This document shows positions 1,297-30,127 of a DNA stretch of 32,000 nt, piece after piece (position 1 is the stretch's first letter; each line of letters begins with the position of its first letter). Source of the DNA: Candidatus Saccharimonadota bacterium (GTDB lineage: Bacteria > Patescibacteriota > Saccharimonadia > Saccharimonadales > Saccharimonadaceae). The notes under the pieces were generated by a model. It saw only the letters and a program-made list of their open reading frames with translations, ran no database searches and was not told the DNA's origin. The stretch covers positions 150,001 through 182,000 of the forward strand of contig CP060232.1 in assembly GCA_023898645.1 (NCBI GenBank). The letters run 5' to 3'. The position numbers and the translations under genes are program-made.

Positions 1297-4056
1297 ATGA
1301 TCGAAATGGTACCACACGAAGATGATCATGGGCATGAGCATCACCACGTGACTGACTATGAACCAAAACCGGACTCTTTCAATGAAGTGGAGCCGATTAA
1401 CCCTGACCTACTCTCTTGGTACCAGCAACAAGACGAAGTAGTTTTTGACGTGGTGCCGCATAGTCATTTGGACTACGCTTGGTATCGTGATCGCGAGGCG
1501 TCAAAGATGCGCGAGATCGAGGCGTTCGTGAAGACTGTCAAAGTTGATCGTTTCACATTGGAGCAGATGATTACCGCCAAAGAATTTGTCGAAGGTGGCG
1601 GCAAGCGAGTTAAAGAAGATTTGCTTGAAATGATTCGTGATGAACGTATGGAGCTGATCGGGCTGTATATCCAGCCGGAAGTATTTCTGAGTCCCGAAGA
1701 GTCGACGTTTTGGAATATTGAATTTGGTCAAAGGGCCGCACGGGAGCTTGGCGGCAATCCATCTAGCGTGGCTTACATACCCGACACGTTTGGATTTCCA
1801 GACACGATGGCGACCATGCTGAAACACGCTGGTGTCGATTCGTTTCTGTTCGAGCGAGGCTTTGAGCAGATTGATACTATCGGAGCTATGTTCATGCTTG
1901 AAGGTCCGGATGGCAGCAAGGTGCTTGCTATGCCGATGCAAGGCGGTTACAGCAATGCCGGGGGACTAACGAGTGTCCATGACGTAGACCGTGAAGCGGT
2001 GTCTGCTGAAAAGTATTATGAGAAGCAAGTTGATTTCGCGACATTGGCTGTCCGGTCACTAATAAATCGCTATGGTCAGCGTTACAAGCAAATCGATATG
2101 CCGCATTTTCTCCTGATGAATGGCAATGACTTTACTAAGCCGGACGAAGATTTACCACGCGTACTCGCTGGCGTACAAGAAAAAATAAGGCAGGAGATAC
2201 CGAACTTTACCATAAAGACGAGTTCGCTCGAAAACTATGCAGAGTTAGTTCAGCGCAGTATCAAGCCTGAGCAGATCAAAACATATGCAGGCGAGATGCG
2301 TTCGGGTAAAGAGCACTTTGTGTTGCGTGGTATTGATTCGGCGCGTATGGAGTTGAAGCAATTTCTGCACAAAGTCGAGTCGAGGATAAACGATGCCGGC
2401 GCGCTGGTGTCGCACGTGTTGCTGGCTCGTAAATATGGGCTAGTCGGGGAGAACGAACATGCGACGTGGCAGCTGGTCGAAGCGTATCAGCGGGCAATAG
2501 AGCAGGTGTTGCCGGTATTATCACACGACACGATTTCGGGCTGTGGTTCTGATAACGCGTATCCCCTGCCCCGTTCGCTTATGACCGGATCGTTCGAAGC
2601 TGCGAATCAAGCTGCTCGTAATGCTATGGCGGCGTTGGCGAATAGGCTAGACACCTATGGTCCGTACCGCCACATTGAGCGCGGACAAAGTTTTGCCAAC
2701 ATGCTGCCAGATGCTCGCACGGCGCTCGTGGAGGTACCAATACAAGGGGATATAGAACATGCGACCGGACTGCGGGCGTTTGTAAGTGTCAATGGCAGGG
2801 AAACTGAGATTCCTGTGCAAATAGTGCAAAAAAGAGATATTCGTTATGCGGTTTGCGCTTTGCCTATGAAAGGTTTCAGCTCGGCCAATGTACGACTTGA
2901 ACCGACAGACAAAGTACAGAACGGGCAGGAGGTACGCACGTTTAATGGATCGTTTGAGAATGAATGTTATACGGTCGATGTGCTACCGAACGGTACGCTG
3001 CACGTCGTAGACAAGCGAAGCGGCGTGGAAGTGAACGGCCTGATATTTGAAGATCAAGGTGACCGTGGCGACGAATATAATTTCTGTCCGGTTGATGGCG
3101 ACGTGGTCCGCACGACGAATGACGGCAAGGCGAGTGTCACGGTTATAAACGACGGGCCAGTATTTACGGAAATCAAAATCGATACGGAACTTGTCGTACC
3201 GAAAAGTTTGGACGCCGAGCAGGGGGCTGATCGCGAAGTTGAAAGCTTGTCTGCCGATATGACGACGATTCCAATAAGCACGAAAGTACGGCTGATTAAG
3301 GGCGTGGACCGTGTTGAATTCTCTACGACTGTCAACAATATGGCTCGTGATCATCGGTTGCGTGTTCGTTTCTCTGCGCCCAACGCAGCAAATACCGTCC
3401 GGGCCAAAGAGCCATATGGCATGACAAGGCGAGAAGCTCTGCCGATAAAGGGTGGTAAGGGCTGGATGGAGCCGCACCCAGTTGCAACGAGTCATCAGCA
3501 GGGGCTTTTGATAGCGGGTGATTTGGCGCTTATGAGTAAAGGTTTGCCGGAATACGAAGCGCATGCAGATGATAATGACATGATAAACGGAGTGTCTCTT
3601 ACCCTACTCCGCAGCGTTGGCTATTTGAGTCGTGGAAACTTGTCCTCGCGGCCGGGTTGGGCGGGGCCGGGTTCGGCAACGCCAGAAGCGCAGTTGATAG
3701 GCGAACATACATTTGAATACGCTATACACACGCGCGGCCGGCAGCGCGACAGCGACGTCATACGCCAGGCGAATGATTACACGCACAAGGCCGAGCACGG
3801 GTTTGAAAAAGCAGTGTTGAATGGAATCATAAACGTCGAAAGCGACGGGGCAGTTATGTCTGCGTTACGACCGACGGCCGATGGCGAAGCGGTACTCGCC
3901 CGCTTTTACAATCCCAGCGATGAGCCGACTGTAGTGAAGCTGAGCGGTGTATTTACGACTGCCGTGAAGTGCGACGCGCTCGGTGAGCCACTTGATGATA
4001 GTGACGCGCATGAGTTTGAGATGCCCAAGGGCATTGTGACGGTGAGATTGAGCTAA
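1297..4056 (+). CDS. glycoside hydrolase family 38 alpha-mannosidase-like protein
   Basis: 919-aa ORF with an RBS gaggggagg 6 nt before the ATG. The N-terminal catalytic hallmarks are VVPHSHLDYAWY (the H-x-H-x-D-x-x-W motif of GH38) and IPDTFGFP (D-x-F-G). Length and architecture are typical of bacterial cytosolic GH38 enzymes. There is no signal peptide. The extreme N-terminus is His-rich (HEDDHGHEHHH). Confidence 0.85.
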   Translation: MIEMVPHEDDHGHEHHHVTDYEPKPDSFNEVEPINPDLLSWYQQQDEVVFDVVPHSHLDYAWYRDREASKMREIEAFVKTVKVDRFTLEQMITAKEFVEGGGKRVKEDLLEMIRDERMELIGLYIQPEVFLSPEESTFWNIEFGQRAARELGGNPSSVAYIPDTFGFPDTMATMLKHAGVDSFLFERGFEQIDTIGAMFMLEGPDGSKVLAMPMQGGYSNAGGLTSVHDVDREAVSAEKYYEKQVDFATLAVRSLINRYGQRYKQIDMPHFLLMNGNDFTKPDEDLPRVLAGVQEKIRQEIPNFTIKTSSLENYAELVQRSIKPEQIKTYAGEMRSGKEHFVLRGIDSARMELKQFLHKVESRINDAGALVSHVLLARKYGLVGENEHATWQLVEAYQRAIEQVLPVLSHDTISGCGSDNAYPLPRSLMTGSFEAANQAARNAMAALANRLDTYGPYRHIERGQSFANMLPDARTALVEVPIQGDIEHATGLRAFVSVNGRETEIPVQIVQKRDIRYAVCALPMKGFSSANVRLEPTDKVQNGQEVRTFNGSFENECYTVDVLPNGTLHVVDKRSGVEVNGLIFEDQGDRGDEYNFCPVDGDVVRTTNDGKASVTVINDGPVFTEIKIDTELVVPKSLDAEQGADREVESLSADMTTIPISTKVRLIKGVDRVEFSTTVNNMARDHRLRVRFSAPNAANTVRAKEPYGMTRREALPIKGGKGWMEPHPVATSHQQGLLIAGDLALMSKGLPEYEAHADDNDMINGVSLTLLRSVGYLSRGNLSSRPGWAGPGSATPEAQLIGEHTFEYAIHTRGRQRDSDVIRQANDYTHKAEHGFEKAVLNGIINVESDGAVMSALRPTADGEAVLARFYNPSDEPTVVKLSGVFTTAVKCDALGEPLDDSDAHEFEMPKGIVTVRLS

Positions 4057-4607: not shown

Positions 4608-4931
4608 TTAGTCTGCTAACTCGTATCCTACGATGGAATTTTGCTGGTCGGTCAGCTCGAATGTTTTACGGATTGTTCCTTGAGTTTCTAGCTGGTGAAG
4701 CGCCTCGTTGGTGACGTAGTAGGGGTATTGAGAAAATGCAACGAGTTCCATCACGCTAAGGCTGGCGTGGCTTAAAGCTTTCACTATGTCCGCCCGGCTG
4801 GCGTCAATTAGTTCATGGTCTTGGTCGACGAAATTATCTTGTGTATATCGATAGCCTTCATTCATAACTTTAGTGTACAGCAAAGCTATGTAGAGTGCTG
4901 CTACCAAGAGCTCAGCGGAGAGCGTTTCCAC
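4608..4931 (-). CDS. small hypothetical protein immediately downstream of tailspike-like gene A
   Basis: 107-aa ORF with a GTG start at 4931 that overlaps the 3' end of the upstream gene by 31 nt. An alternative ATG at 4865 (MNEGYRY...) would remove the overlap. The product is soluble and helical-looking (ADIVKALSHASLSVMELVAFSQYPYYVTNEALHQLETQGTIRK), possibly a winged-helix-like fold. No confident family assignment. Confidence 0.5.
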   Translation of the reverse strand: METLSAELLVAALYIALLYTKVMNEGYRYTQDNFVDQDHELIDASRADIVKALSHASLSVMELVAFSQYPYYVTNEALHQLETQGTIRKTFELTDQQNSIVGYELAD

Positions 4932-7015
4932 GTATCGGTATCAATGCAGGTATAAATATAATCCGTATCATACGCGATTTGTCCCTTTACTCCAGGAGAC
5001 GATGCAGTAGCTGGTGGCGGTACGTTGGTCGTCGATAATCGCGTGAGATGCTGCCCCTTCCATCTACTGAAATTGTTGGTTGTTAGGCGAATAATATCAA
5101 CGCCGCCTGGTTCTGTGGTAAAAATTGGGTCTTGTCCGTCAATCCATTCGAATTCATAGGTAGAGCCAGCAAATGCAGTTGGTACAAAAAACGGAGCTAC
5201 AAAAATCGCATTTCCACCTGAATCAGGCTGTTTAATCCAGATATCAATCGTATTTACGCCAAATGGCGAATCACCACCCAGTATAGCGGAGGAGCCAGGT
5301 ACGGAGGCCATGGATGTTAAGCCGCCTAGGTCAAGACGCATTCTATACGTACCGGGCGTGGGTTCTAGAGCAAAAATTGAACCGTTTTCGATATAGAATA
5401 CGTATGTTGGATTCGGCGAACCAGGCACTCGCTCAAACACTTCAGTGGCTAGGCCCGCCCCACCAGTAAGGTTTGTTCCATCTATTGTCATCATAGGCAG
5501 GTCTTGTGATGCCAGTGCATTTTTAAACTCTACCGAATATCCGTTCTCGTCTTGGATCACCGAATTGATGTACCTTGCTTGCAAATGATAGACTTGCGAG
5601 TTACCTGCGCCTATAGATGGCAGCGCATCAAGCGCAGCTTGCACCTGAGATACCGTGGCATTGTAAGCTAGCGGAGAAGTTGTACTACCGCTATATGTCA
5701 GTGTAAAGGTACCCCCCGTCGCTTCTGTAATATAAATACCCTGGACTTCCCTTGTGGCGTCTAGATATTGGCCGCCCCGTGCTTGTGACACAAGCTGTAA
5801 TGATTGAAACGACTGTATCGTACCGGTTGAACCCAAGGACGGTGAATTTTTGAGCAAACCACCAAATGCAAACGTCCGAGGCGTAGCGTTACCTGGCTGA
5901 AATTGTGACCCAGAATATGGAATTAAGTTTATAGAACCTGATGCTGTTACCTTTGAGTTGATCTCCCAATAATTACCCGATCCTTGCATGAAATCATAGT
6001 GCGCAGTGCCGCCCGCGGTGCCAGACGTCTCCACGCCAATCTGCAATTCACCAGAGAAGCTGGCGGCATCCGCATCGTCTTTGCCTACACGGAACAGTAC
6101 GCCCGTATTGACACCTCCGACCGTACTCAGCTGACAATTACCGGTAAGCGTGACCGATGCGCCATTCATGGAAACCTTAGACCCGGCCGCACCAGAACGT
6201 AACACAAATGCATGTTGGTCGGGCTGAACGACAAACGATAACCAGTACTGCGAATAATCGAACGATCCGCTCGTCACGTTGCCGGTGTTCGACTCAAATA
6301 CAAAACATTCAGTACATTGATTGACGACGCATTCTATATAGGCACGCTCCGACCAGTATGTTTGGTTGTCACCCCAAAGACCGATACTGCCCGACTGGTT
6401 AAAACCAGATATCTCCACATCGGTGATACGCATACGCCAGATGTCGCCGTATCGGATTCCATAAGTGTTGCTGTTGCCGTTGTTCCATCCCAATATCGTC
6501 AAGCCGTGGGCGCCGCCGGCAGGTTTAGTGCCTGTCGTTGCGAACGTCTTGTTGCGAAATTCTAGGAACGCTCCCGCGCCACGATAATCAATAGACGTCA
6601 GGCCAGAACCCTGACCTAGAATCATTTGCTGCTCTTTTATGCATCTACTCGATGCATCGTTGAGACCGACAAATAACTTGTACGTACCTACACCAAAGAC
6701 GACTGCTCCCGCCTCCGATCCCATCGCCTCGTACGCATCAATAAGTGCTTGATTGGAATCATTGACACCCGTCGGATCTGCTCCGTAATCATCGATAAAA
6801 TACTGCTTTGGCATCGTAACGATGCCGGCATTATTGAGCTTCGTCTGCGTGGCGTTGTCGAGCTTGCTTTCGGTAATAGTGCCGTCTGCGATGCTCGTAG
6901 TTGTAACAACGGTATCTTTGAGCGTACCGTCAGGATTATGTGCCTGTGAAAGAAAATCATTGAGGATAGCACCCCAGGTGCCTGAATCACCGCCAGGGAC
7001 GGGGAGGCGAGACAT
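4901..7015 (-). CDS. tailspike-like protein A: shared N-terminal fibre module + pectate-lyase-like beta-helix + conserved C-terminal knob
   Basis: The track ORF is 4901..7084. I place the start at ATG 7015 (MSRLPVPGGDSGTWGAILNDFLSQAHNPDGTLKD) because all paralogues start at M-[AS]-R-L-P and a ggggg RBS lies 9 nt upstream. YFIDDYGADPTGVNDSNQALIDAYEA...VVFGVGTYKL matches the N-terminal signature of pectate_lyase_3/tailspike beta-helix proteins. The protein is collinear with paralogue B along its whole length. The C-terminus is SSPGVKGQIAYDTDYIYTCIDTDTWKRSPLSSW. Confidence 0.85.
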   Translation of the reverse strand: MSRLPVPGGDSGTWGAILNDFLSQAHNPDGTLKDTVVTTTSIADGTITESKLDNATQTKLNNAGIVTMPKQYFIDDYGADPTGVNDSNQALIDAYEAMGSEAGAVVFGVGTYKLFVGLNDASSRCIKEQQMILGQGSGLTSIDYRGAGAFLEFRNKTFATTGTKPAGGAHGLTILGWNNGNSNTYGIRYGDIWRMRITDVEISGFNQSGSIGLWGDNQTYWSERAYIECVVNQCTECFVFESNTGNVTSGSFDYSQYWLSFVVQPDQHAFVLRSGAAGSKVSMNGASVTLTGNCQLSTVGGVNTGVLFRVGKDDADAASFSGELQIGVETSGTAGGTAHYDFMQGSGNYWEINSKVTASGSINLIPYSGSQFQPGNATPRTFAFGGLLKNSPSLGSTGTIQSFQSLQLVSQARGGQYLDATREVQGIYITEATGGTFTLTYSGSTTSPLAYNATVSQVQAALDALPSIGAGNSQVYHLQARYINSVIQDENGYSVEFKNALASQDLPMMTIDGTNLTGGAGLATEVFERVPGSPNPTYVFYIENGSIFALEPTPGTYRMRLDLGGLTSMASVPGSSAILGGDSPFGVNTIDIWIKQPDSGGNAIFVAPFFVPTAFAGSTYEFEWIDGQDPIFTTEPGGVDIIRLTTNNFSRWKGQHLTRLSTTNVPPPATASSPGVKGQIAYDTDYIYTCIDTDTWKRSPLSSW

Positions 7016-14930: not shown

Positions 14931-16361
14931 ATGCATAAACACATTCACGATAAGGTAAATACTACTCGACCGTTGGTGATGCACATCGATCTCAATAGTT
15001 GCTTTGCCACGGTAGAACAGCAAGCGCGGCCGCGGCTAAGGGGGCGACCGGTAGCGGTGGTGAATCGGCGGACTGAGAATACTATGATTATCACGGCTAG
15101 CTATGAGGCAAAGGCGATGGGCGTGAAGCTTGGTATGCGGCTGCGTGATGCTAAGCGACTATGCCCAGGGCTTGTTGGTGTCGAAAGCGACCCAGCCAAA
15201 TATCGCTATGTGTATCATAAGCTGCTCGACATCATGAATGATTACTCGGCGCACGTGACTATGAAGAGTATCGACGAGGGGGTGATTGATTTTACGCAGG
15301 CACCGAAGGCTATCGTGGAGCGCGGGCTCGAGGTGATTGGCTATGAAATTAAGCAGCGATTACGCGACGAAATTGGCTGCGCCATGCGTTGCAATGTAGG
15401 CATTGGTACGAATCGATTCTTGGCCAAGATGGCGGCGAGTTTGCATAAGCCGGATGGGCTCGATGCCATCACGGCGGACAATTTGCGCGAGGTGTACAGT
15501 ACGCTCAAGCTTACCGATCTGACTGGCATTGCCGGGCGCAATGAGCATCGTCTGAATGCTGTCGGTATTTATACGCCGCTCGAGTTTCTCGATGCGTCGG
15601 TCGATGTATTGCATAGTATGGTGTTTCAGAGTGTCAATGGCGAGCAGTGGCATCAGAGGCTGCGTGGTTGGGAGGTTGATGATTTTGGCGCTGCATTACC
15701 CAAGCGGGTAGGCCGACAGTACGTGCTTGATAGCTTCAGTCTAACGTTTGACGAGATATTGAATCGGTTGCATCATCTCTGCGAATCGGTCGGCTATCGC
15801 ATGCGCAAACAAGGATTGAGTGCACGTGGTGTTTATGTCGGTACGCGGACGTTTGACATGGAGGGTGACAGAAGGCGAATACCTGGCTTGCACGAAACCT
15901 CGCCGATCTCAGAGTCGTATCCGGGCGAGTCAGAGGGCGTTTTATCCGAGAGAGGCATAGCTGAAGCTACGTTGAGCGAGGAAAAGCGACATCTGGCCGG
16001 TCGGGGCGAATCTGAGGCGGCAGGGATTTCGCGTAAGTCGGGTACATATTGGCATGCTACTCATGTGTCGCAAACGCCATTTTTTAGTAATGAAGCTATC
16101 TATGGTCTGGCGCGGCAACTTTTTGTAAATGCACCGCCGAACATTCGTGATATCAATGTGCACGTGTATCTGCTAGAGCAGGGCGATCGGTCGCAGCTGA
16201 GTATTTTTAATGACCAAATCGCTCGCGAACGAGCAGTGGTTGGTGCGATTGACGAGCTTAATCAGCGCTACGGAGAGCATACGATTCATGCGGCGAGCAC
16301 CACGAACACCGGTCCGTTCGTCAAAACAAAGATACCTTTCGGGAGTACGAGGTACTTGTAA
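14931..16361 (+). CDS. dinB: Y-family DNA polymerase IV
   Basis: The catalytic motifs are MHIDLNSCFATVEQ (D-x-x-x-F-[FY]-A-x-V-E) and KSIDEGVID (S-[IL]-D-E). RFLAKMAASLHKPDG matches the conserved KxLAKxAS..KPxG thumb motif. At 476 aa it is longer than usual because of an insertion in the little-finger region. Confidence 0.9.
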   Translation: MHKHIHDKVNTTRPLVMHIDLNSCFATVEQQARPRLRGRPVAVVNRRTENTMIITASYEAKAMGVKLGMRLRDAKRLCPGLVGVESDPAKYRYVYHKLLDIMNDYSAHVTMKSIDEGVIDFTQAPKAIVERGLEVIGYEIKQRLRDEIGCAMRCNVGIGTNRFLAKMAASLHKPDGLDAITADNLREVYSTLKLTDLTGIAGRNEHRLNAVGIYTPLEFLDASVDVLHSMVFQSVNGEQWHQRLRGWEVDDFGAALPKRVGRQYVLDSFSLTFDEILNRLHHLCESVGYRMRKQGLSARGVYVGTRTFDMEGDRRRIPGLHETSPISESYPGESEGVLSERGIAEATLSEEKRHLAGRGESEAAGISRKSGTYWHATHVSQTPFFSNEAIYGLARQLFVNAPPNIRDINVHVYLLEQGDRSQLSIFNDQIARERAVVGAIDELNQRYGEHTIHAASTTNTGPFVKTKIPFGSTRYL

Positions 16362-16413
16362 ATCTAAGCGTAACTGTCATAATTGTAGTTACAAAGAGGA
16401 GAAAATAAACAAA

Positions 16414-18621
16414 GTGGCTCGCTTACCGCAACCAGGTGGAGACAATGGCAATTGGGGCCATATTCTTAATGATTATCTGAGTCAAACACTCAAAGCCGAC
16501 GGAACACTGAAAGACGGCATTGTTCCGGAAGCGTCACTAGACGTGACCGTGCAGTCGAAGCTCAATGGCATTACAGGGAAAGTCGATAAATCAATCTTAA
16601 CGACAAAAGGCGACATATACGTCGCCGCTGGCTCTGGGACGCCTGTTCGACTTGGTGTCGGCATGGATGGGCAAGTTCTCACTGCAGATAGTAGTACTGT
16701 TCTCGGGGTGAGTTGGGCGGCAGTAACAACGAGTTCGCAGAAGAGGTATTGTATCGATGATTTCGGCGCAGACCCCACAGGAGTGGTAAATTCAGACGAT
16801 GCTTTAGTTGCTGCGAGGGGGGCGCTTGGAAATGACCCGGGTGTAATTGAGTTTGGTGCCGGTGAGTACAAGTTCTCGAAGGGTTTGAATACGGTTTGGG
16901 GTATGGATCTCAGGCCTAAGCAGGGTGTTCGTGGCCAAGGTAAGGCCCTGACGAAGATTTATTTTCAAGGGCAGGGTGCGGTGTTTGAGTTTCGTAATCC
17001 TGATTGGACGTTCAATAGCGCGGGCAATCCCTACGGCGGTGTCCAAGGAATGTGGATCGATGGTTGGTCGAACACCAACACAGATACGTATGGAATTCGG
17101 TACGGTGACAGTAACGGTATGACGGTTGCAGATGTACATGTAGCCGGCTTTAATCAGGCTGGTTGTGCCGGACTGTACGGCGATAATCAGATTTCTTGGT
17201 CTGAGCGTGCCGACATCGAAATATCAGTGGAACAATGTACTACCTGTTTTTTGTTTGAGTCGAATGCTACTTCTACTCCTGCAGGCTCATCCTCGTTTGA
17301 TTACTCTCGTTATCGTTTGACGTTTGTAGCTGTCGCCAATCAGGACGTTTTTGTATTGCGCACCTCTCCTGGGTGTGTTCGTACTTCAATGAATGGTGTT
17401 CAAATGGAGTTAACAGGTAACTGCAATAACGCTCCTTCGGACGGTACGAACTCAGGGGTGCTGTGGCATGTCGGGTACGATAATGATGACGAAGCCTCGT
17501 TCTCTGGAACACTGCAGATTAATGTAGAGACGTCAGGATATTCCGACGGTGTCTGCCACAAGGATTTTGTCATGGGAGGCGTGGGCCCATGGTGGTTGGT
17601 GAAGTCGCGGGTGAGGGCCACTGGAGCGATTAACCTAATACCGTTTAGCGGAGTAAACTTTGCTGAAGGTGGCGCTACTCCATATAATTTCTCATTCGAC
17701 GGTTTGCTGTATAAGTCACCGTCACTTGGCTCTTCGGGTTATTTTGGTGCTTCTCGGTCTTTGCAGTTGCAGGCTGACTCTAGGGGAAGAATTAGTTTGG
17801 AAAATACTAACGCGGCGCAATTGATTTATGTTACTAGCGCTACGGCCGGTACGTATAGATTAAATTACGGCGGGACATATACCGACACGATACCATATAA
17901 CGCGTCGACTGCTCAGGTGCAGGCTGCACTCGAAGGAATCCCGGCATTGGCGGGGAATGTAACGGTGGTCCATGCTCAGTCTCGGTTCATTAACGGGGTA
18001 TATGCAAATGAGGTTGGTTTTGGCGTTGATTTCATCGGTTCGTTGTCTGAGACTGCGGTACCGACACTTACGGCTGATATGTCAAGTTTGACCGGTGGGG
18101 TCGACATCGTCGTCGCTAATACTGGTAGTCCCAACAAGACGATTAACCTAGAGATAGAGTCAGGCAATATGTTTGTAGTAAACTGGCTTGATCCCGGTAC
18201 TTATCGGATACGAGCACAGACCGGCAACTTAACTGATTCGATGGGTCTAGATAAAGATTCTCCGTTCGGTGCCACCGTGCTTGATGTGTGGATCCAGCAA
18301 CCGACTACTGGAGGGAATGTTATTTTGGAAGGGCCGTACTTCCCACCTGGAACCAATTTCGGCTCTAGCTACAATTTTCAATGGCTGGACGGTATCGATC
18401 CCGTGTTGTCTACCACGCCCAATGCCTATGATGTTATCCGTCTTTCCACATTCAACTTCAACGCGTGGATTGGCCAGCATGTGACACGTAAAGCTATCGC
18501 TTCTGTCCCATCTACTTCTTCTTCTCCTGGTATCGAAGGCCAGATTGCGTATGATGCAGATTATATGTATGTCTGCACGGATACTGATACGTGGAAACGT
18601 TCTCCGATAGGTTCTTGGTAA
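16414..18621 (+). CDS. tailspike-like protein B: shared N-terminal fibre module + pectate-lyase-like beta-helix + conserved C-terminal knob
   Basis: The track ORF 16210..18621 overlaps dinB. I place the start at in-frame GTG 16414 (VARLPQPGGDNGNWGHILNDYLSQTLKADGTLKD), after agaggaga. It contains the phage-fibre-like motif TKGDIYVAAGSGTPVRLGVGMDGQVLTADSSTVLGVSWA, then YCIDDFGADPTGVVNSDDALVAARGA...IEFGAGEYKF (beta-helix signature). The C-terminus is SSPGIEGQIAYDADYMYVCTDTDTWKRSPIGSW. Confidence 0.85.
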   Translation: MARLPQPGGDNGNWGHILNDYLSQTLKADGTLKDGIVPEASLDVTVQSKLNGITGKVDKSILTTKGDIYVAAGSGTPVRLGVGMDGQVLTADSSTVLGVSWAAVTTSSQKRYCIDDFGADPTGVVNSDDALVAARGALGNDPGVIEFGAGEYKFSKGLNTVWGMDLRPKQGVRGQGKALTKIYFQGQGAVFEFRNPDWTFNSAGNPYGGVQGMWIDGWSNTNTDTYGIRYGDSNGMTVADVHVAGFNQAGCAGLYGDNQISWSERADIEISVEQCTTCFLFESNATSTPAGSSSFDYSRYRLTFVAVANQDVFVLRTSPGCVRTSMNGVQMELTGNCNNAPSDGTNSGVLWHVGYDNDDEASFSGTLQINVETSGYSDGVCHKDFVMGGVGPWWLVKSRVRATGAINLIPFSGVNFAEGGATPYNFSFDGLLYKSPSLGSSGYFGASRSLQLQADSRGRISLENTNAAQLIYVTSATAGTYRLNYGGTYTDTIPYNASTAQVQAALEGIPALAGNVTVVHAQSRFINGVYANEVGFGVDFIGSLSETAVPTLTADMSSLTGGVDIVVANTGSPNKTINLEIESGNMFVVNWLDPGTYRIRAQTGNLTDSMGLDKDSPFGATVLDVWIQQPTTGGNVILEGPYFPPGTNFGSSYNFQWLDGIDPVLSTTPNAYDVIRLSTFNFNAWIGQHVTRKAIASVPSTSSSPGIEGQIAYDADYMYVCTDTDTWKRSPIGSW

Positions 18622-18652: not shown

Positions 18653-18688
18653 CATAATAACAACATACTACATAATAACAACATACTA
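18653..18688 (+). repeat. perfect tandem duplication of an 18-nt unit in the 5' leader of fibre gene C
   Basis: cataataacaacatacta occurs at 18653-18670 and again at 18671-18688, followed directly by the RBS aggag and the ATG at 18705. The first unit begins with CATAAT, which sits 17 nt after TTGTGA (18630-18635), a possible -35/-10 pair. Confidence 0.8.
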
Positions 18689-18704
18689 AGGAGAAACAGG
18701 GGAG

Positions 18705-20648
18705 ATGGCACGATTACCGATTCCTGGGGGCGACAAGGGTAACTGGGGAACAATTCTTAATGACTTTCTCACGCAATCACATAAATCTGACGGGAAATTA
18801 AAGGATGACTCTGTAGGTGCGGCTCAGCTGCAAGATAACGCGGTGACGGCGAGTGCGATTGCGCCGAATGCAATTACCGTTACTGAATTGGCAGGGGATT
18901 CCGTCGACACGACGGTAATTGCGGACGGATCGATTACGAGCGCCAAAATCGCTGACGGTACGATCGTCACAGGTGACATATCTCCGGCTGCTGGTATTGT
19001 AAAATCACAACTCTCATCAAGCGTGCAGGCATCTCTTGATAAAGCCGACACTGCATTGCAGTCAGGAACGTCCGTAAGCAGCATTTCGGGCTTTCCGTTG
19101 AGGTTACCGGGCGAAAAGGCAGTCGCAGTGGCACAAGAAGTCGCAGTTGCAAGGGCAGAAGTGAGCAATCCTGCCGGCCATAAGGTTGTTGTTCTCGCGG
19201 AAACTTGGGGTAAGCCGGGTATATTGAAGCATATTTGGGTGGCGGTAGATAATTCTGCGACGGTCGACGGGTTTTTGGAGCAAGGCGGTGTCATAAGGGT
19301 GTACACCGACGATGACACAACTCCGGCAATCTCAATGTCGCTTGGTGATTTCTTTTGTTTGGCAAATCGATCTGATGTTTTTGAAACACCACGTGTCGGC
19401 AGGTCTAATAGAGGTAGTGGAGGTTCGGCCTATCGCTATCTGCATATGCCATTTCAAAAGTATCTTCGAGTTGAGATTGAAAGTCTTATGGGTACAGACT
19501 CGGCTTTTTATGGCACCGCAGATTATTCATTAGTCGATTCGTTCAGCGATCTTGGAACGCAGCAGCTCGCCTATAGTATAAAAGGTCAACGAGTTGCAAG
19601 CCAGGCAGTGCAAACCCCCATGACGGTGTGTGATTTTGATGGTTCGGGGCAGATTGAATCATTGGTCGTGAGTTTTGCGGGTGCCGACAATGGAGACTGG
19701 GGCGTGCTCGAGGGCGATATTCAGGTATACGTAGATGGCGAGCAATTCCCTATATGGTCATCGTCTGGCATGGAGGATGCCTTTAATGGTGGTTGGTATG
19801 CAACACCAATCGGTGGTTATCCTGCTGGTCGTTCTGGTGATTCCGACCAGTCTGGTGTTAATATGACGATGTATAGATTTTTCCTTGATGATCCGATTTT
19901 CTATTCATCACACCTGAAGGTTGTGGCATGGGCAGGGCAGCCGGGTCAGGGAGGTATTGTTTCTGCGACGGTTGATTTTGCCGGCTATGTGGGCGTGTGG
20001 TCGTCGGCTGCAACAACGCCAAGCTACACAGCGGTTGACGGAATATCGCCACCCGTACTTAACGATCAGATGGACCAGACTGCAGGCGCGCTTGACTCTG
20101 GCACATGGAATCAAGACGGCACTCGCACCCAAATGGTGGCGACTGGTTCGACTTTTACAGTGCCATATGGTAGTGCAAGCGCCGATCAAGATGTACGAGC
20201 AGCGCGTAAAAACGTCTCATTACCTTCGGATTATTGGCTGGAAACAAAAGTTCGCATAACAGACCCTTCTCATGATAATCAAGAGGCGTTGCTTGTTATG
20301 CTCGGAGCCACACCTGATCCATATTTTGGCTCTGCGGTACACATAGGACTTCGACGATACGAGCAATACAACTGGCATATACAGCTTCGTGACGACTTTG
20401 ATACACCATTTGACGTGACGATTGGGGGAGGTTTGGATCTTACGAATATGTGGGCTCGGTTGGCTCTAAAGAAACAGGGTTCGAAAATCACTGGTTATTA
20501 TTCGTTGAATGATACTCCCTCTCCTTGGATTCCTCTTGGTACCTGGGACGCATCTAAAGTCGGAACCGGCTTTGGAATTGCTACATGGACTGCAGGTGCT
20601 GAGTTTGACTATCTAGTTGTTCGTCCTCTCGAAGATGTCACTAGCTAA
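18705..20648 (+). CDS. tail-fibre-like protein C: shared N-terminal module + DUF2961/GH172-like jelly-roll + C-terminal LamG/ConA-like domain
   Basis: The N-terminus is MARLPIPGGDKGNWGTILNDFLTQSHKSDGKLKD, followed by fibre-type repeats (AIAPNAITVTELAGDSVDTTVIADGSITSAKIADGTIV). The middle region carries GILKHIWVAV...VIRVYTDDDTTPAISMSLGDFF, YRYLHMPFQKYLRVEIE, WGVLEGDIQVYVDGEQFPIWSSSGMEDAFNGGW and MYRFFLDDPIFYSSHLKV. These follow the conserved blocks I recall for DUF2961 (PF11175, GH172). The C-terminal ~150 aa (YWLETKVRI...WARLALKKQGSKITGYYS...WIPLG) look LamG-like. Confidence 0.8.
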   Translation: MARLPIPGGDKGNWGTILNDFLTQSHKSDGKLKDDSVGAAQLQDNAVTASAIAPNAITVTELAGDSVDTTVIADGSITSAKIADGTIVTGDISPAAGIVKSQLSSSVQASLDKADTALQSGTSVSSISGFPLRLPGEKAVAVAQEVAVARAEVSNPAGHKVVVLAETWGKPGILKHIWVAVDNSATVDGFLEQGGVIRVYTDDDTTPAISMSLGDFFCLANRSDVFETPRVGRSNRGSGGSAYRYLHMPFQKYLRVEIESLMGTDSAFYGTADYSLVDSFSDLGTQQLAYSIKGQRVASQAVQTPMTVCDFDGSGQIESLVVSFAGADNGDWGVLEGDIQVYVDGEQFPIWSSSGMEDAFNGGWYATPIGGYPAGRSGDSDQSGVNMTMYRFFLDDPIFYSSHLKVVAWAGQPGQGGIVSATVDFAGYVGVWSSAATTPSYTAVDGISPPVLNDQMDQTAGALDSGTWNQDGTRTQMVATGSTFTVPYGSASADQDVRAARKNVSLPSDYWLETKVRITDPSHDNQEALLVMLGATPDPYFGSAVHIGLRRYEQYNWHIQLRDDFDTPFDVTIGGGLDLTNMWARLALKKQGSKITGYYSLNDTPSPWIPLGTWDASKVGTGFGIATWTAGAEFDYLVVRPLEDVTS

Positions 20649-25590: not shown

Positions 25591-28470
25591 ATGGCACGTC
25601 TTCCAACTCCTGGAGGAGATAGTGGTAATTGGGGAACAATACTCAACACCTTTCTCTCTCAGGTTCACGCCTCTGACGGCACACTCAAAACCGACAGTGT
25701 CACCAGCGACGCCATTGCTCCGAATGCCGTAACTTCCAGTGCTCTTGCTCCCAACGCAGTCGATGCCATCACTATAGCTGATGGCTCTATCACCGAAACA
25801 CTCCTCGATACTGCAGTTCAAACCAAACTCAATGCGACTGCTCCAGTCACATCCGTAGCATCCAAGACTGGTGATGTCTCCCTCACCAAGACCGACGTTG
25901 GTCTTGATCAGGTCGACAACACCAGTGATGCGACGAAGAATAGTGCGACGGCGACGCTGACGAATAAGACGTTGACAGGGCCGACGATTGATAGTCCTTC
26001 TCTGATAGGAAATATCACGGGTGCCGCTTCAATTGGCGTGGTCGCCGGCTCTGTATCAGGGCTTTATCTATCTGCTACGACTGGCGTGGGGACACTAGGA
26101 GCTGTACGAGTGCTGTCGTCTACAGGCGCAAATGGCCTAGCCCAGTTGGGTGTAAACGGTAACCAAACAGCTTCTAGTGGTACGCAATTCGGTATCGCTA
26201 TCACTTCAAACATAAACCAGTCGTCGACTGCTGGCTATACAGCTCTCCTTGTGAACCCAACTGAAACAGCAACTGGTTCCGGAACCAAAAGGCTGATCGA
26301 CGCTCAGGTAGGAGGCACATCCAAGTTTGTAGTGGACAACGCCGGGAATGTGACACTAGGAAGCACGACAATCGCCGCTGGCCCCACCCCACTGAACGTT
26401 AGTTTAGGGGGTTCTTACGGCAATAGCACTGCGGGCAGTAGCAATAACATGAAGCTGGCGCTATACAATGATAGCAGCGTCAAACTTGGATTTGGCGTTT
26501 CGCTAAATACACTTGAATATCAAGTCAATTCGCTTTCCTCACACAAGTTCTACGTCGGCGGTACTGAGCGTTTAGCTATCTCGTCTTCTAGCATGACCGT
26601 GGGTGGTGTACCTGTAGTCACAACATCAGACACTCAGACGTTAACGAATAAGACGCTGACAAGCCCGACATTTACTGGAACAATCACCGGGGTGGCAGAC
26701 GCGACTACTACTGGGTCTGGCAAGGTTGTTACCGGCGGTGTGTTAAGTACCCAGCCAGATGCCAACTCTACATCCATGCTGGCAATTCCAGGATTGTACA
26801 ATGACCTTTCATATTGTCTGATGCGTGCTGGTGCTTCCATGACCATTACCAAAAATGGCGGTGCGACGGTAGCGGGAGTCGATTACCTTTATCCCGATGC
26901 CATGTTTGCACCACAGGGCATGACGTATCTCAATGGTTTGGTAAACGGTGACGTGTTTGTCATAGAGGTTACCGCTCCGAGCGGCTTGACCATGGACTAT
27001 GTCAATACATACGGGATTTCATGCTCTAACAGCTTCCGCGCAAGCAACGTGACCATCGAGGTGTATTTCAATGGAGCGTGGACTTCCATCCATTCGGTGA
27101 CTAATCAGACTGCTGGAGATGTATGGAAGTTCTATTCTAGCGGTGCATACTCAGTGACCAAGATTCGGTACACACTGACTAACTTCCCTTATAATCAGTG
27201 CCGCATTTTCTCCTTGTACGCAATAACCGGCACAACTGCGTTGGCGTCGGGTCCATTGCTACCACGGACCGGTGGTGCCTTGTATGGCACTAATGCTGCG
27301 CCACCAACACTGACAGCTACCGGTGCCGATGCTAGCATCAATCTCAATCTTGTCCCGAAAGGATCAGGAACTGTCCAAGCAAATGGTGTCGAGGTCGCGA
27401 CTATTTCTGGCACGCAAACACTCACAAATAAGACATTGACAAGCCCGACGCTGACTACGCCGAGGACGGCCTCTATCATGGACACGAACGGCAATTGGGC
27501 ATTCATGATAAATGCCACCACCAACGCTATCAATTATTTGCAGGTCATCAACAGTGCGACTGGAAGCGCTGTTCGCATAAATGCAGCAGGTAGCGACACG
27601 AACATTAGCATGAATTTGGTACCTAAGGGCACTGGAGTGATTCAGGCTAATGGCGCTGAGGTGGCGACCACCACCGGCACACAGACACTGTCGAACAAGA
27701 CCTTGGTGAGTCCTACGATTACTGGCACCCCCACTGGAGTTGCCAGGCAAGCTCAGGTCGATGTATTCACACCTCTGGGCGCGAACTATGTCACCGATAA
27801 ACAGGTGTCCTCAAACGTAGTAACTCTTACTACACTCACAGCACACGGCTATCAGGTTGGCGACAAGGTTTGGATCAACGGCATTGATTCCGCGATCGAA
27901 TTAAACCTAGTTACCTCGGTGACTATCACTTCGATTCCGACAGCCACTACATTTACTTTTGCTAGAAGTGTCGCTGACATAGCCCCTGCAACCGTGCGGC
28001 CCTACGGAAACGTGTTTCAACTTCAGACATGGACGAAACCGTCCGGTGCTGTTTCGGTGAAGTTCACATTATGCGGTCCAGGTGGCGGTGGTGGATCTGG
28101 TGCGAGGCGAGCTACCACGTCAAACCGTACCGGCGGTGGCGGTGGCGGTGGCGGGGGTTGGCAAGAAGTTACTGTTCCTGCGTCGGACGTGCCCGACACT
28201 GCGATGTTCGTTAGCGTCCCCGCCGGGGCTTACGGCGGTCTGCCCGTCACTACGGATGACACGGACGGAATGGTCGGCGGGAGAAGCTATCACTCGACTC
28301 GCGTCAGCAACCTTGAAATTTCGTATCTGTCCACGCTTAACTTTAACGCCAATCCGGGTTACGGCGGGCTGGGTGGCAGCACCGGAACAACCGTCGCTGG
28401 AGGCGGAGGCGCCGTCAATACTCAGTTTGCGGTGCCGGTGGAGCGGGCAACACTAGCAACGGGAGCATAG
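25591..28470 (+). CDS. giant tail-fibre-like protein D, main reading frame (shared N-module, fibre repeats, start of glycine-rich domain); interrupted near its 3' end
   Basis: The N-terminus is MARLPTPGGDSGNWGTILNTFLSQVHASDGTLKTD. It contains VGLDQVDNTSDATKNSATATLTNKTL (a phage-fibre-type motif) and a recurring TQTL[TS]NKTL[TV]SPT motif, including an 89-aa-period duplicate (27337-27450 and 27604-27717). The glycine-rich domain starts at FTLCGPGGGGGSG...GGGGGGGGGWQEVTV. The frame ends at TAG 28468-28470, in the middle of that domain. Confidence 0.85.
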   Translation: MARLPTPGGDSGNWGTILNTFLSQVHASDGTLKTDSVTSDAIAPNAVTSSALAPNAVDAITIADGSITETLLDTAVQTKLNATAPVTSVASKTGDVSLTKTDVGLDQVDNTSDATKNSATATLTNKTLTGPTIDSPSLIGNITGAASIGVVAGSVSGLYLSATTGVGTLGAVRVLSSTGANGLAQLGVNGNQTASSGTQFGIAITSNINQSSTAGYTALLVNPTETATGSGTKRLIDAQVGGTSKFVVDNAGNVTLGSTTIAAGPTPLNVSLGGSYGNSTAGSSNNMKLALYNDSSVKLGFGVSLNTLEYQVNSLSSHKFYVGGTERLAISSSSMTVGGVPVVTTSDTQTLTNKTLTSPTFTGTITGVADATTTGSGKVVTGGVLSTQPDANSTSMLAIPGLYNDLSYCLMRAGASMTITKNGGATVAGVDYLYPDAMFAPQGMTYLNGLVNGDVFVIEVTAPSGLTMDYVNTYGISCSNSFRASNVTIEVYFNGAWTSIHSVTNQTAGDVWKFYSSGAYSVTKIRYTLTNFPYNQCRIFSLYAITGTTALASGPLLPRTGGALYGTNAAPPTLTATGADASINLNLVPKGSGTVQANGVEVATISGTQTLTNKTLTSPTLTTPRTASIMDTNGNWAFMINATTNAINYLQVINSATGSAVRINAAGSDTNISMNLVPKGTGVIQANGAEVATTTGTQTLSNKTLVSPTITGTPTGVARQAQVDVFTPLGANYVTDKQVSSNVVTLTTLTAHGYQVGDKVWINGIDSAIELNLVTSVTITSIPTATTFTFARSVADIAPATVRPYGNVFQLQTWTKPSGAVSVKFTLCGPGGGGGSGARRATTSNRTGGGGGGGGGWQEVTVPASDVPDTAMFVSVPAGAYGGLPVTTDDTDGMVGGRSYHSTRVSNLEISYLSTLNFNANPGYGGLGGSTGTTVAGGGGAVNTQFAVPVERATLATGA

Positions 28471-29284: not shown

Positions 29285-30127
29285 ATGGCACGTCTTCCAA
29301 CTCCTGGAGGAGACAGTGGCAATTGGGGATCAATCCTCAACGACTATCTTTCTCAGGTCCACGCCCCTGACGGCACACTCAAAACAGACAGTGTCACCAG
29401 CGACGCCATTGCTCCTAATGCCATTGATTCTATAGCCATCGCCGATGGCTCTATCACCGAAACGTTGCTTGATACGGCGGTTCAAACCAAACTTAATACC
29501 GTCGCACCCGTCACTAGCGTTGCCGCTAAGACCGGTGACGTCACGCTCATCAAGTCCGACGTCGGTCTAGATCAAGTCGACAACACAAGTGACGCCACTA
29601 AAAACAGCGCTACGGCAACCTTGCAGAACAAGACTCTCGATAACAGTAATAGTCTTACGCTCAAAGACGCTAATCTTACCATTCAAGACGACAGCGATAC
29701 TTCAAAGCAAGCAAAGCTTCAGCTCTCCGGTATTACCACGGGCACAACGCGCACGTATACACTCCCTGACGCCTCAGGTACGGTGGCGCTGACGAGCCTC
29801 ATCCCTCCTATTCGTTTTTCTGCTCCGACTGCAGTCGTAGGCGTCACGCCGACTGACTATGCGTATGGTCCACGGACGCTAACTGGCGCACATATGCGCG
29901 TGGCGAGCGCTCCGGTCGGGTCTGATCTTGTCGCCGAGGTTCAACATTGGGATGGTTACTCTTGGTCGACACTATGCACACTCACCGTATCTGATGGGTC
30001 GGTCACAGAAGCTACCTCCAGCCTTTCTCAGCAGCAGTCAGCCGGGAACATGGTACGCCTTAATGTGACATCGGTCGGGGGCAATTCCGCTGCAACTGGA
30101 GTTGCCGTAGACGTAGAGGTAGATTAA
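29285..30127 (+). CDS. short tail-fibre-like protein E (shared N-module + small beta-rich C-terminal domain)
   Basis: The N-terminus is MARLPTPGGDSGNWGSILNDYLSQVHAPDGTLKTD. The first ~115 aa are near-identical to gene D apart from an 8-aa indel. It contains VGLDQVDNTSDATKNSATATLQNKTL and TRTYTLPDASGTVAL (a phage-fibre-type motif). Its stop TAA (30125-30127) overlaps the next ATG (TAATG). Confidence 0.85.
   Translation: MARLPTPGGDSGNWGSILNDYLSQVHAPDGTLKTDSVTSDAIAPNAIDSIAIADGSITETLLDTAVQTKLNTVAPVTSVAAKTGDVTLIKSDVGLDQVDNTSDATKNSATATLQNKTLDNSNSLTLKDANLTIQDDSDTSKQAKLQLSGITTGTTRTYTLPDASGTVALTSLIPPIRFSAPTAVVGVTPTDYAYGPRTLTGAHMRVASAPVGSDLVAEVQHWDGYSWSTLCTLTVSDGSVTEATSSLSQQQSAGNMVRLNVTSVGGNSAATGVAVDVEVD

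Follow-up and report, generated by a model that had tools for sequence, protein, structure and literature searches.

A GH172-family glycosidase domain on a phage-tail-fibre-type stalk in a Saccharibacterial chromosome: a candidate enzyme fibre directed at a mycolata host

How ultrasmall Saccharibacteria and other epibionts of the Candidate Phyla Radiation (CPR) recognise and open the envelopes of their hosts is largely unknown, and pili are the only well-studied contact structures of these organisms. A gene that bears on this problem is found at positions 18705..20648 (plus strand) of a 32,000-nucleotide (nt) stretch of DNA from a Candidatus Saccharimonadota bacterium (GenBank assembly GCA_023898645.1, contig CP060232.1, positions 150,001 to 182,000 of the forward strand), hereafter the window, whose own numbering is used throughout. 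Its product joins a domain of glycoside hydrolase family 172 (GH172) to a stalk of the kind found in phage tail fibres, which raises the question of what such an enzyme does on such a stalk and where it works. The answer proposed here, held with about even confidence, is that the protein is a homotrimeric, host-directed exo-α-D-arabinofuranosidase fibre of the Saccharibacterium, acting on the arabinogalactan (AG) and lipoarabinomannan (LAM) of a mycolata host. The proposal builds directly on the order of the domains, on GH172 membership by sequence and by predicted fold, on intact catalytic residues, on the chromosomal context of the gene and on the occurrence of the same enzyme cassette in tail modules of Mycobacteriales phages and prophages; to these it adds a trimeric state, a substrate, an extracellular location and a role for the N-terminal head, each of which is worded conditionally below.

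The gene is a complete coding sequence in the open reading frame (ORF) list, with an ATG start, 647 codons (68.7 kDa) and a stop codon; the identical 647-residue protein was gene-called on five independent Logan contigs and is present in the metagenome-assembled genome (MAG) Candidatus Saccharibacteria bacterium HKST-UBA63. A sequence-only reading of the locus had assigned the central part of the protein to DUF2961, the fold of GH172, from five blocks taken to follow the conserved pattern of that family, and these are present in the order given: GILKHIWVAV (residues 172-181), VIRVYTDDDTTPAISMSLGDFF (196-217), YRYLHMPFQKYLRVEIE (243-259), EGDIQVYVDGEQFPIWSSSGMEDAFNGGW (336-364) and MYRFFLDDPIFYSSHLKV (389-406). 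The assignment was borne out by the sole match in Pfam-A, PF11175 (DUF2961; GH172_2nd in newer Pfam), which covers residues 196-408 with an E value of 5.3e-34 and 118.2 bits, far above the cut-off of 27, and the newer Pfam models GH172_1st, GH172_dom and GH172_2nd are precomputed for the identical protein. Sequence matches in the PDB are confined to four GH172 entries, namely 4KQ7, 7V1V (αFFase1), 8AH3 (Dysgonomonas gadei GH172) and 8IC8 (ExoMA1), with E values of 2e-14 to 3e-7 for the single sequence and 7e-24 to 2e-12 for a profile of 45 sequences. An AlphaFold2 monomer model made with 45 homologues has a mean predicted local distance difference test score (pLDDT) of 85.3 and a predicted template modelling score (pTM) of 0.79, with residues 130-435 mostly above 90. 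The double jelly-roll expected of the family was recovered in a Foldseek search of this model against the PDB, in which the best seven matches are all GH172 (E 5.6e-16 to 4.7e-14, target-normalised TM score 0.53-0.65) and in which the PRD1 double jelly-roll capsid protein P3 is also found. The GH172/DUF2961 double jelly-roll catalytic domain spans residues ~131-435 (19095..20009, plus strand, as are all features of this gene). The sole low-confidence stretch inside its model is residues 361-370 (nt 19785-19814), which hold W364 and Y365.

The active site was compared through a HMMER alignment that keeps PDB numbering (and ends at G299 of αFFase1), and invariance was judged on an alignment of 45 homologues that are 39-83% identical to the query. 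In αFFase1, the acid/base is E270 and the nucleophile is E291, and the -1 subsite is lined by D292, W298 and W267 together with Y187', which the adjoining protomer contributes; activity is lost on mutating E270, E291 or D292 and on replacing Y187 by Ala, W298A retains about 4-17%, and W267A was not producible. The predicted catalytic acid/base of the window protein is E336 (19710..19712), equivalent to E270 of αFFase1, E242 of Dg67 and E256 of Dg79, and the predicted nucleophile is E357, equivalent to E291 of αFFase1 and to E264 of Dg67, a nucleophile that has been trapped covalently. E357 is followed by D358 (equivalent to D292; both encoded at 19773..19778), and the 21-residue spacing between E336 and E357 is that between E270 and E291 of αFFase1. 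W364 (equivalent to W298) and Y365, which occupies the specificity position, are encoded at 19794..19799. All five of these residues are invariant in the 45 homologues, so that the catalytic acids whose conservation the sequence-only reading had marked for checking are in place. Y269 (19509..19511), part of the alignment consensus FYGxADYS, corresponds to Tyr187' of αFFase1. With this set of residues, the catalytic domain looks like a working retaining furanosidase.

Every characterised GH172 enzyme acts on α-D-arabinofuranosides (α-D-Araf) or α-D-fructofuranosides (α-D-Fruf), and the exo-α-D-arabinofuranosidases among them degrade mycobacterial AG and LAM; the activities named in the sequence-only reading, those of difructose dianhydride enzymes and of exo-α-D-arabinofuranosidases on mycobacterial D-arabinan, agree with the literature. 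In αFFase1, Gly299 leaves space for the C1 hydroxymethyl group of fructose, and the Araf-specific ExoMA1 has Asn253 at this position. Since Gly299 is replaced here by an invariant and bulky Tyr, which none of the tested enzymes has at this position, activity of the window protein on fructofuranosides appears unlikely.

The catalytic domain is followed by a second, lectin-like one. Residues 436-647 (20010..20645) are predicted to fold as a ConA-like β-sandwich with pLDDT above 90, and the Foldseek matches of this part comprise the C-terminal domains of GH43 xylosidases, ERGIC-53 (1gv9), a legume-lectin-like domain (5zbt) and a GH16 glucanase (3d6e), with E values of 5e-7 to 2e-5 and target-normalised TM scores of 0.53-0.65 for the lectin and GH16 matches and 0.24-0.28 for the larger GH43 enzymes. 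No Pfam match was obtained for these residues even at E<=10, LamG and ConA sequence profiles included. Of the earlier label, ConA/LamG-like, the ConA-like part is therefore upheld by the predicted fold, and LamG stands as a description of the fold and not as a Pfam family. G542, W557, D563, F565 and W608 are invariant across the 45 homologues, and the domain always accompanies this GH172 subfamily; it is presumed to bind glycan.

The N-terminal part of the protein was described in the sequence-only reading as fibre-type sequence of about 150 residues, which proved right in kind and somewhat too long, the module covering about 130. Residues 38-130 (18816..19094) comprise repeats of the phage-tail-fibre type (AKIADGTIVTGDIS) as well as a short neck, helical, at residues 105-119 (VQASLDKADTALQ); in the monomer model, residues 1-130 are of low confidence except for this helix. 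The stalk is homologous in sequence to phage tail-fibre families: residues 27-126 match PHROG tail-fibre and minor-tail families, the best being phrog_892 (5e-12), followed by phrog_2012 (4e-10) and others, and the same residues match 385 phage records, among them 310 of Mycobacterium phages and 22 of Gordonia phages, with Vibrio phages and cyanophages also represented. On the phage side, the segments matched are the '...AKIxDGxVT...' repeats seen in minor tail proteins like gp57 of Mycobacterium phage WIVsmall. A Foldseek match to the central fibre gp20 of the Douge mycobacteriophage (8zdp_v/8zdq_v) at E=1e-7 was too poor in geometry (TM 0.17, rmsd 83) and was not used.

In front of the stalk lies a conserved head of 37 residues (18705..18815), MARLPxPGGDxGxWGxILNxxLxQxxxxDGxLKxxxV. 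Five proteins encoded in the 32-kb window open with M[AS]RLPxPGGDxGxWGxILNxxL[ST]Q...DGxLK, the copies lying at 18705-18815, 16414-16527, 25591-25701 and 29285-29395 on the plus strand and at 7015-6905 on the minus strand, and 19 of the 26 invariant columns of the corresponding alignment fall within residues 1-37. The head motif recurs in 97 of the 120 matches of the first database search, starting at residue 3 in 92 of them, and an exhaustive HMMER search with residues 1-40 returned at least 4,492 proteins (E<=1e-3, counted as representatives of 50%-identity clusters), nearly all matched at residues 1-40. No Pfam match was found for the N-terminal module even at E<=10, NCBIfam returned nothing for the GH172 protein or its window paralogues, and the phage matches examined cover the repeats of the module (about residues 40-120) and not the head. 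The domains that follow the head are very varied and include SGNH/GDSL esterase, polysaccharide deacetylase, pectate-lyase-like, GH28-related, glycine-rich and phage-fibre types. A head, a stalk and an exchangeable tip form the layout of phage receptor-binding proteins, from which we infer that the head may serve as a shared docking or targeting module, and the proteins that bear it look like a major uncharacterised family of Saccharibacteria. A preprint on the pili of M. amalyticus mentions in passing a family of 'tail fibre-like protein' co-localised with the pam operon in CPR genomes and gives no analysis of it.

The enzyme part of the protein also occurs elsewhere. One genome was scanned for each GTDB species, and the best 80 loci were considered; full-length relatives (41-100% identity) came from 12 Saccharibacteria/Patescibacteria genomes, and the GH172+ConA cassette without the Saccharibacterial head (residues ~120-640) came from two Mycolicibacterium genomes, those of sp. 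S2-37 (52% identity) and M. palauense CECT 8779 (40%); all other matches were at most 33% identical and covered the catalytic core only. In M. palauense, the 559-residue cassette gene directly follows a tape-measure gene of 1,274 residues (phrog_3547, 3e-130) and precedes minor tail genes matching phrog_106 (6e-82) and phrog_110 (4e-164). Residues 736-921 of this tape-measure protein (locus L021, 65-3889) match an ADP-ribosyltransferase exoenzyme toxin family (phrog_3895, 7e-21). In S2-37, the cassette is found on the margin of a phage-like block containing a phage-type ribonucleotide reductase (phrog_367), Ku (phrog_4873), an HNH gene and many small ORFs, and is followed by a mycobacterial glycine-rich protein. 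Four metagenomic phage contigs carry the cassette beside tail-fibre or lysin genes, and its neighbours on such contigs also include genes for a head-tail adaptor, a tape-measure protein and an endolysin. In a phage contig of 66 kb (L088, 8470-11590), the cassette gene comes directly after a 505-residue pectate-lyase-like tail fibre (phrog_33904, 4e-98); two tail proteins that act on glycans, each of a different kind, thus seem to be encoded next to each other in this phage. Close by lies an Acb2/Tad1-like anti-defence gene (5154-5402). The metagenomic relatives show four further kinds of N-terminus, including a phage fibre head of the Mtd_N (major tropism determinant-like) type in P0138 (L089, 2291-4096), which immediately precedes lysin A. 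These sequences show that several phage anchor modules, unrelated to one another, have been joined to the cassette. Within the collections searched, the cassette was found only in Saccharibacteria, behind the MARLP head, and in tail or lysis modules of Mycobacteriales phages and prophages.

The hosts of the phage contigs were approached through their lysins. Lysin B, a direct marker of a mycolata host, was not found among the tested ORFs of these contigs, and similarity of lysin A was used instead: the lysin A genes of L088 and L089 match phages of Mycobacteriales genera only (1296 of 1296 and 876 of 876 records), these being Mycobacterium, Gordonia, Rhodococcus, Corynebacterium, Tsukamurella, Nocardia and Mycolicibacterium. 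In a simple distance tree of the cassette (neighbour-joining, 100 bootstraps), monophyly of the subfamily is recovered (100). The S2-37 copy joins a Saccharibacterial clade and is placed for the most part within it (86 and 75), and a single Saccharibacterial copy clusters with four copies from phages (93). Within the limits that such a tree sets on the weight of the argument, this suggests repeated exchange of the cassette between Saccharibacteria and Mycobacteriales phages that share a host. The earlier suggestion that the target is an envelope glycan of another cell gains support from the presence of the same cassette in these tail modules.

On this basis, the following course of events is envisaged. 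The 37-residue head would dock or target the protein, and about 90 residues of tail-fibre repeats would form, together with the helical neck, a trimeric stalk. At its end, a GH172 trimer would present three active sites at the interfaces, each made up of E336, E357, D358 and W364 from one chain and Y269 from the next; the basal unit of GH172 enzymes is a trimer with its active sites at protomer interfaces. These sites would remove terminal α-D-Araf, by retaining cleavage, from the D-arabinan of host AG and LAM, and the three ConA-like sandwiches would add glycan binding. Acting where epibiont and host are in contact, the fibre could serve adhesion with turnover, as phage tailspikes do, or local opening of the wall with release of D-arabinose, or both. 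The fibre architecture and the cassette shared with phages argue for action at the host surface and not in the cytoplasm. The relatives behind the same head point in the same direction, as the esterase, deacetylase, pectate-lyase-like and GH28-like domains that they carry belong to enzymes of envelope polymers and not of cytoplasmic catabolism.

Several observations weigh against this proposal, and the first of them concern export. A crude hydropathy scan detected no Sec/Tat signal peptide, lipobox or transmembrane segment in the GH172 protein or its four paralogues in the window (maximum 19-residue Kyte-Doolittle mean at most 1.5, and 1.14 in the GH172 protein, whose N-terminus is polar). Likewise, MycGH172 (GII36_05205), the enzyme of Candidatus Mycosynbacter amalyticus, a Saccharibacterium parasitic on Gordonia and other mycolata, was 'predicted to not be secreted' by Al-Jourani et al. 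2023 (PMC10115798), who favour cytoplasmic trimming of imported oligosaccharides and give local wall remodelling as the alternative. MycGH172 may share the architecture of the window protein, the two having been compared by mass and description. It was not among the best 80 loci of the genome scan, no match list contained an entry named M. amalyticus, and fitting its published theoretical mass to members of the family with various tags yielded near-misses only, with too many free choices. The published model would make the window protein a cytoplasmic catabolic enzyme that trims arabino-oligosaccharides, released at the surface by a GH183 endo-arabinanase and then imported, to D-arabinose for nutrition; it is in keeping with the missing leader and with the exo-acting GH172 enzymes of Microbacterium and Dysgonomonas, which belong to catabolic loci. 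A tail-fibre stalk and a lectin-like domain would, however, be useless to a cytoplasmic exo-glycosidase, neither a sugar transporter nor a D-arabinose catabolic gene adjoins the GH172 gene in the window, and this model leaves aside both the sharing of the cassette with phage tail modules and that of the head with other envelope-polymer enzymes. We consider it unlikely, if far from negligible.

The remaining reservations about a host-directed arabinofuranosidase fibre concern its substrate and its active site. Identity to characterised GH172 enzymes is about 20%, and at the position of W267 the subfamily varies (the window protein has W332, other members L, A or P), so that substrate specificity is extrapolated. 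The loop at residues 364-366 has pLDDT below 50 in the monomer model; the poor modelling of W364 and Y365 is consistent with a loop that becomes ordered only at the protomer interface of an oligomer. Searching INPHARED with GH172+ConA showed that no cultured phage has the cassette, the three weak matches (about 25% identity) all being to unannotated gut phage contigs. Several of the genomes that bear the gene are groundwater or surface-water MAGs. A fibre that is host-directed and whose GH172 tip cuts another furanoside or glycan of the envelope, and not α-D-arabinofuranosides, would accommodate the low identity, the poor conservation of the W267 equivalent and the provenance of the MAGs, as well as the invariant Tyr at the position of Y365, where the tested enzymes have Gly, Asn or Cys. 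Against this, Mycobacteriales are indicated by every phage relative for which a host can be inferred, D-arabinan is the furanoside polymer that sets these bacteria apart, and all GH172 members tested on α-D-Araf cleave it, the Saccharibacterial MycGH172 included, which leaves a different substrate rather improbable.

Phage receptor-binding proteins often reuse enzyme folds, and MycGH172 shows lower activity on LAM and weak activity on pilin arabinan (PMC10115798), which would suit a GH172 fold that serves as a lectin-like module recognising arabinan without cutting it; yet the invariance of both Glu, D358 and W364 in 45 sequences of 39-83% identity is the pattern of a working active site and makes such a binding-only protein very improbable.

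It is hardly credible, finally, that the protein is a true phage tail fibre, from a prophage or phage remnant of the Saccharibacterium itself and recognising Saccharibacteria instead of their hosts: the stalk is homologous to those of phages and five fibre-like genes lie within 32 kb, but the window holds no capsid, portal, terminase, tape-measure, integrase or lysis genes, and its GC content is even throughout. Its gene content is that of a chromosome, with a GH38 mannosidase, a deaminase and a DsbD/thioredoxin protein, DinB directly upstream of the fibre genes, and TilS, FtsH and MurJ directly downstream. The same order (DinB or fibre paralogues, GH172, TilS, FtsH, MurJ) is found in loci L009, L012 and L019 of other Saccharibacteria, the gene lies near DsbD in L015 and L018, and the named close homologues are all from Saccharibacteria or Patescibacteria. 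The window gene is not encoded within a phage structural module, a setting found only for its cassette relatives in Mycolicibacterium prophages and phage contigs. A prophage in the window was rejected on gene content and on the conserved TilS-FtsH-MurJ synteny, and the GH172 fibre gene belongs to the chromosome, where it has been retained by vertical descent, and is no relic of a prophage.

Upstream of the GH172 gene, a Shine-Dalgarno-like AAGGAG (18688..18693, plus strand) ends 11 nt 5' of the ATG, and an 18-nt unit, CATAATAACAACATACTA, is repeated exactly, as a tandem pair, at 18653..18688 (plus strand). The pair sits in the 83-nt gap upstream of the gene and abuts the ribosome-binding site, and is possibly a promoter or regulatory element. 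Beyond this gap lies the adjacent head-bearing paralogue (16414..18621, plus strand; 735 residues), with a weak pectate-lyase-like region and a tail-protein-like C-terminus. Its true start is the GTG at 16414, which is preceded by AAAGAGGAG and gives a protein beginning MARLPQPGG, in agreement with Logan gene calls; the mechanical ORF of 803 residues (16210-18621), which starts at the ATG at 16210, overlaps the end of dinB. A related paralogue of 704 residues is encoded at 4901..7015 on the minus strand. Both have a weak region resembling pectate lyases and pre-neck appendages and a C-terminal motif common to phage tail proteins (phrog_17312), and they may be depolymerase-type fibres with a β-helix; two genes of this type stand in tandem upstream of the GH172 gene in locus L009. 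The other head-bearing paralogues, both on the plus strand, have 959 residues (25591..28470), with a Gly_rich_2 domain and minor-tail-protein-like repeats, and 280 residues (29285..30127). The GH38-family α-mannosidase (1297-4056; 919 residues) has no obvious signal peptide and is encoded in a reduced Saccharibacterial genome; a link between this enzyme and mannan-containing host glycolipids such as lipomannan (LM) and LAM would be pure speculation.

What is new in the locus can be separated from what is already known. The sequence-only reading knew of no case of this fold on a tail-fibre-like stalk, a claim that holds in part: the enzyme class is already published, as is, with MycGH172, an active example from a Saccharibacterium that preys on mycolata, and the mounting on a fibre is unreported in the literature searched, in which neither Saccharibacterial fibres nor phage tails are mentioned by any paper that contains 'DUF2961' or 'GH172'. 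What appears to be new is that mounting, behind a widely shared head, together with the GH172+ConA cassette in Mycobacteriales (pro)phage tail modules and the action at the host surface that is implied. A wider picture may be drawn tentatively, in which Saccharibacteria possess a very large family of leaderless trimeric fibres derived from phage tail fibres, whose head docks to, or is exported through, an envelope machine, whose interchangeable enzyme or lectin tips breach the host envelope, and whose tips are traded with phages of the same host and so reveal the host clade, here mycolata. The GH172 fibre would suggest a second, phage-like route to the host beside pili, and taking it for a fibre would revise the cytoplasmic role published for MycGH172, the one GH172 of a Saccharibacterium that has been tested. 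The cassette could further serve as a sequence marker by which a mycolata host is predicted for uncultured Saccharibacteria, with relevance to the control of wastewater foaming and possibly to mycobacteria, and the previously unreported GH172 tail enzymes of Mycobacteriales phages are candidate AG/LAM depolymerases and probes. The distribution of the cassette points to gene flow that links an epibiont lineage with phages infecting its host.

Among known systems, the closest is MycGH172, which releases D-arabinose from AG and LAM as an exo-α-D-arabinofuranosidase, being less active on LAM than the other enzymes tested, and which is a trimer in solution (theoretical mass 202,115 Da, 67.4 kDa per chain), as is NocGH172 (PMC10115798). 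Both MycGH172 and the window protein are Saccharibacterial GH172 proteins that lack a predicted secretion signal, and their masses, 67.4 and 68.7 kDa, compare with about 40 kDa for a single-domain GH172; neither a fibre module nor phage relatives are mentioned in the paper on MycGH172 (PMC10115798). In the same host system, the resistance of one Gordonia mutant to M. amalyticus was mapped to aftB, which encodes the terminal arabinosyltransferase of AG, and was attributed by those who described it to lost attachment of mycolates. The characterised exo-α-D-arabinofuranosidases ExoMA1 (8IC8), DgGH172a/b/c (Dg67, Dg71 and Dg79; 8AH3) and NocGH172 resemble the window protein in the double jelly-roll, in two Glu residues about 21 apart, in the TED/MED motif and in the Trp that follows, and their active site is completed by the neighbouring protomer. 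They are single-domain proteins (Dg71 has 1.5 double jelly-roll domains) that form hexamers, dodecamers or dimers and belong to catabolic loci, whereas the window protein adds a stalk and a ConA-like domain, carries Tyr in place of their Asn or Cys, and belongs to a subfamily in which the W267-position Trp before the acid/base is not conserved. The equivalent of W267 is likewise not conserved in Dg71, in which another Tyr compensates. The founding member of the family, αFFase1 (7V1V), the difructose dianhydride I synthase/hydrolase of Bifidobacterium dentium, has E270, E291, D292, W298 and Y187', all of which are matched in the window protein. Domain fusions in the family were surveyed by Krupovic et al. 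2022 (PMC8812541), who found about 9% of DUF2961 proteins to be multidomain and listed fusions to ConA, laminin G, carbohydrate-binding modules and lectins; their survey includes no tail-fibre fusion, Saccharibacteria or phage context and states that the family is not associated with proviruses. Arabinan-degrading enzymes of another family do have a phage setting, as GH183 endo-arabinanases occur in lysis cassettes of actinophages such as Gordonia phage GMA6 (PMC10115798).

In its overall plan, the window protein shares the modular logic of phage tailspikes, with a conserved N-terminal anchor, a trimeric stalk (here predicted) and an exchangeable enzymatic or receptor-binding tip. Phage tailspike and fibre depolymerases are trimeric fibres with a glycan-cutting domain, as exemplified by the P22 tailspike endorhamnosidase and the K1F endosialidase. 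Unlike these, the window protein is encoded among housekeeping genes on the chromosome of a cellular epibiont, and its catalytic domain is a double jelly-roll in place of the usual β-helix.

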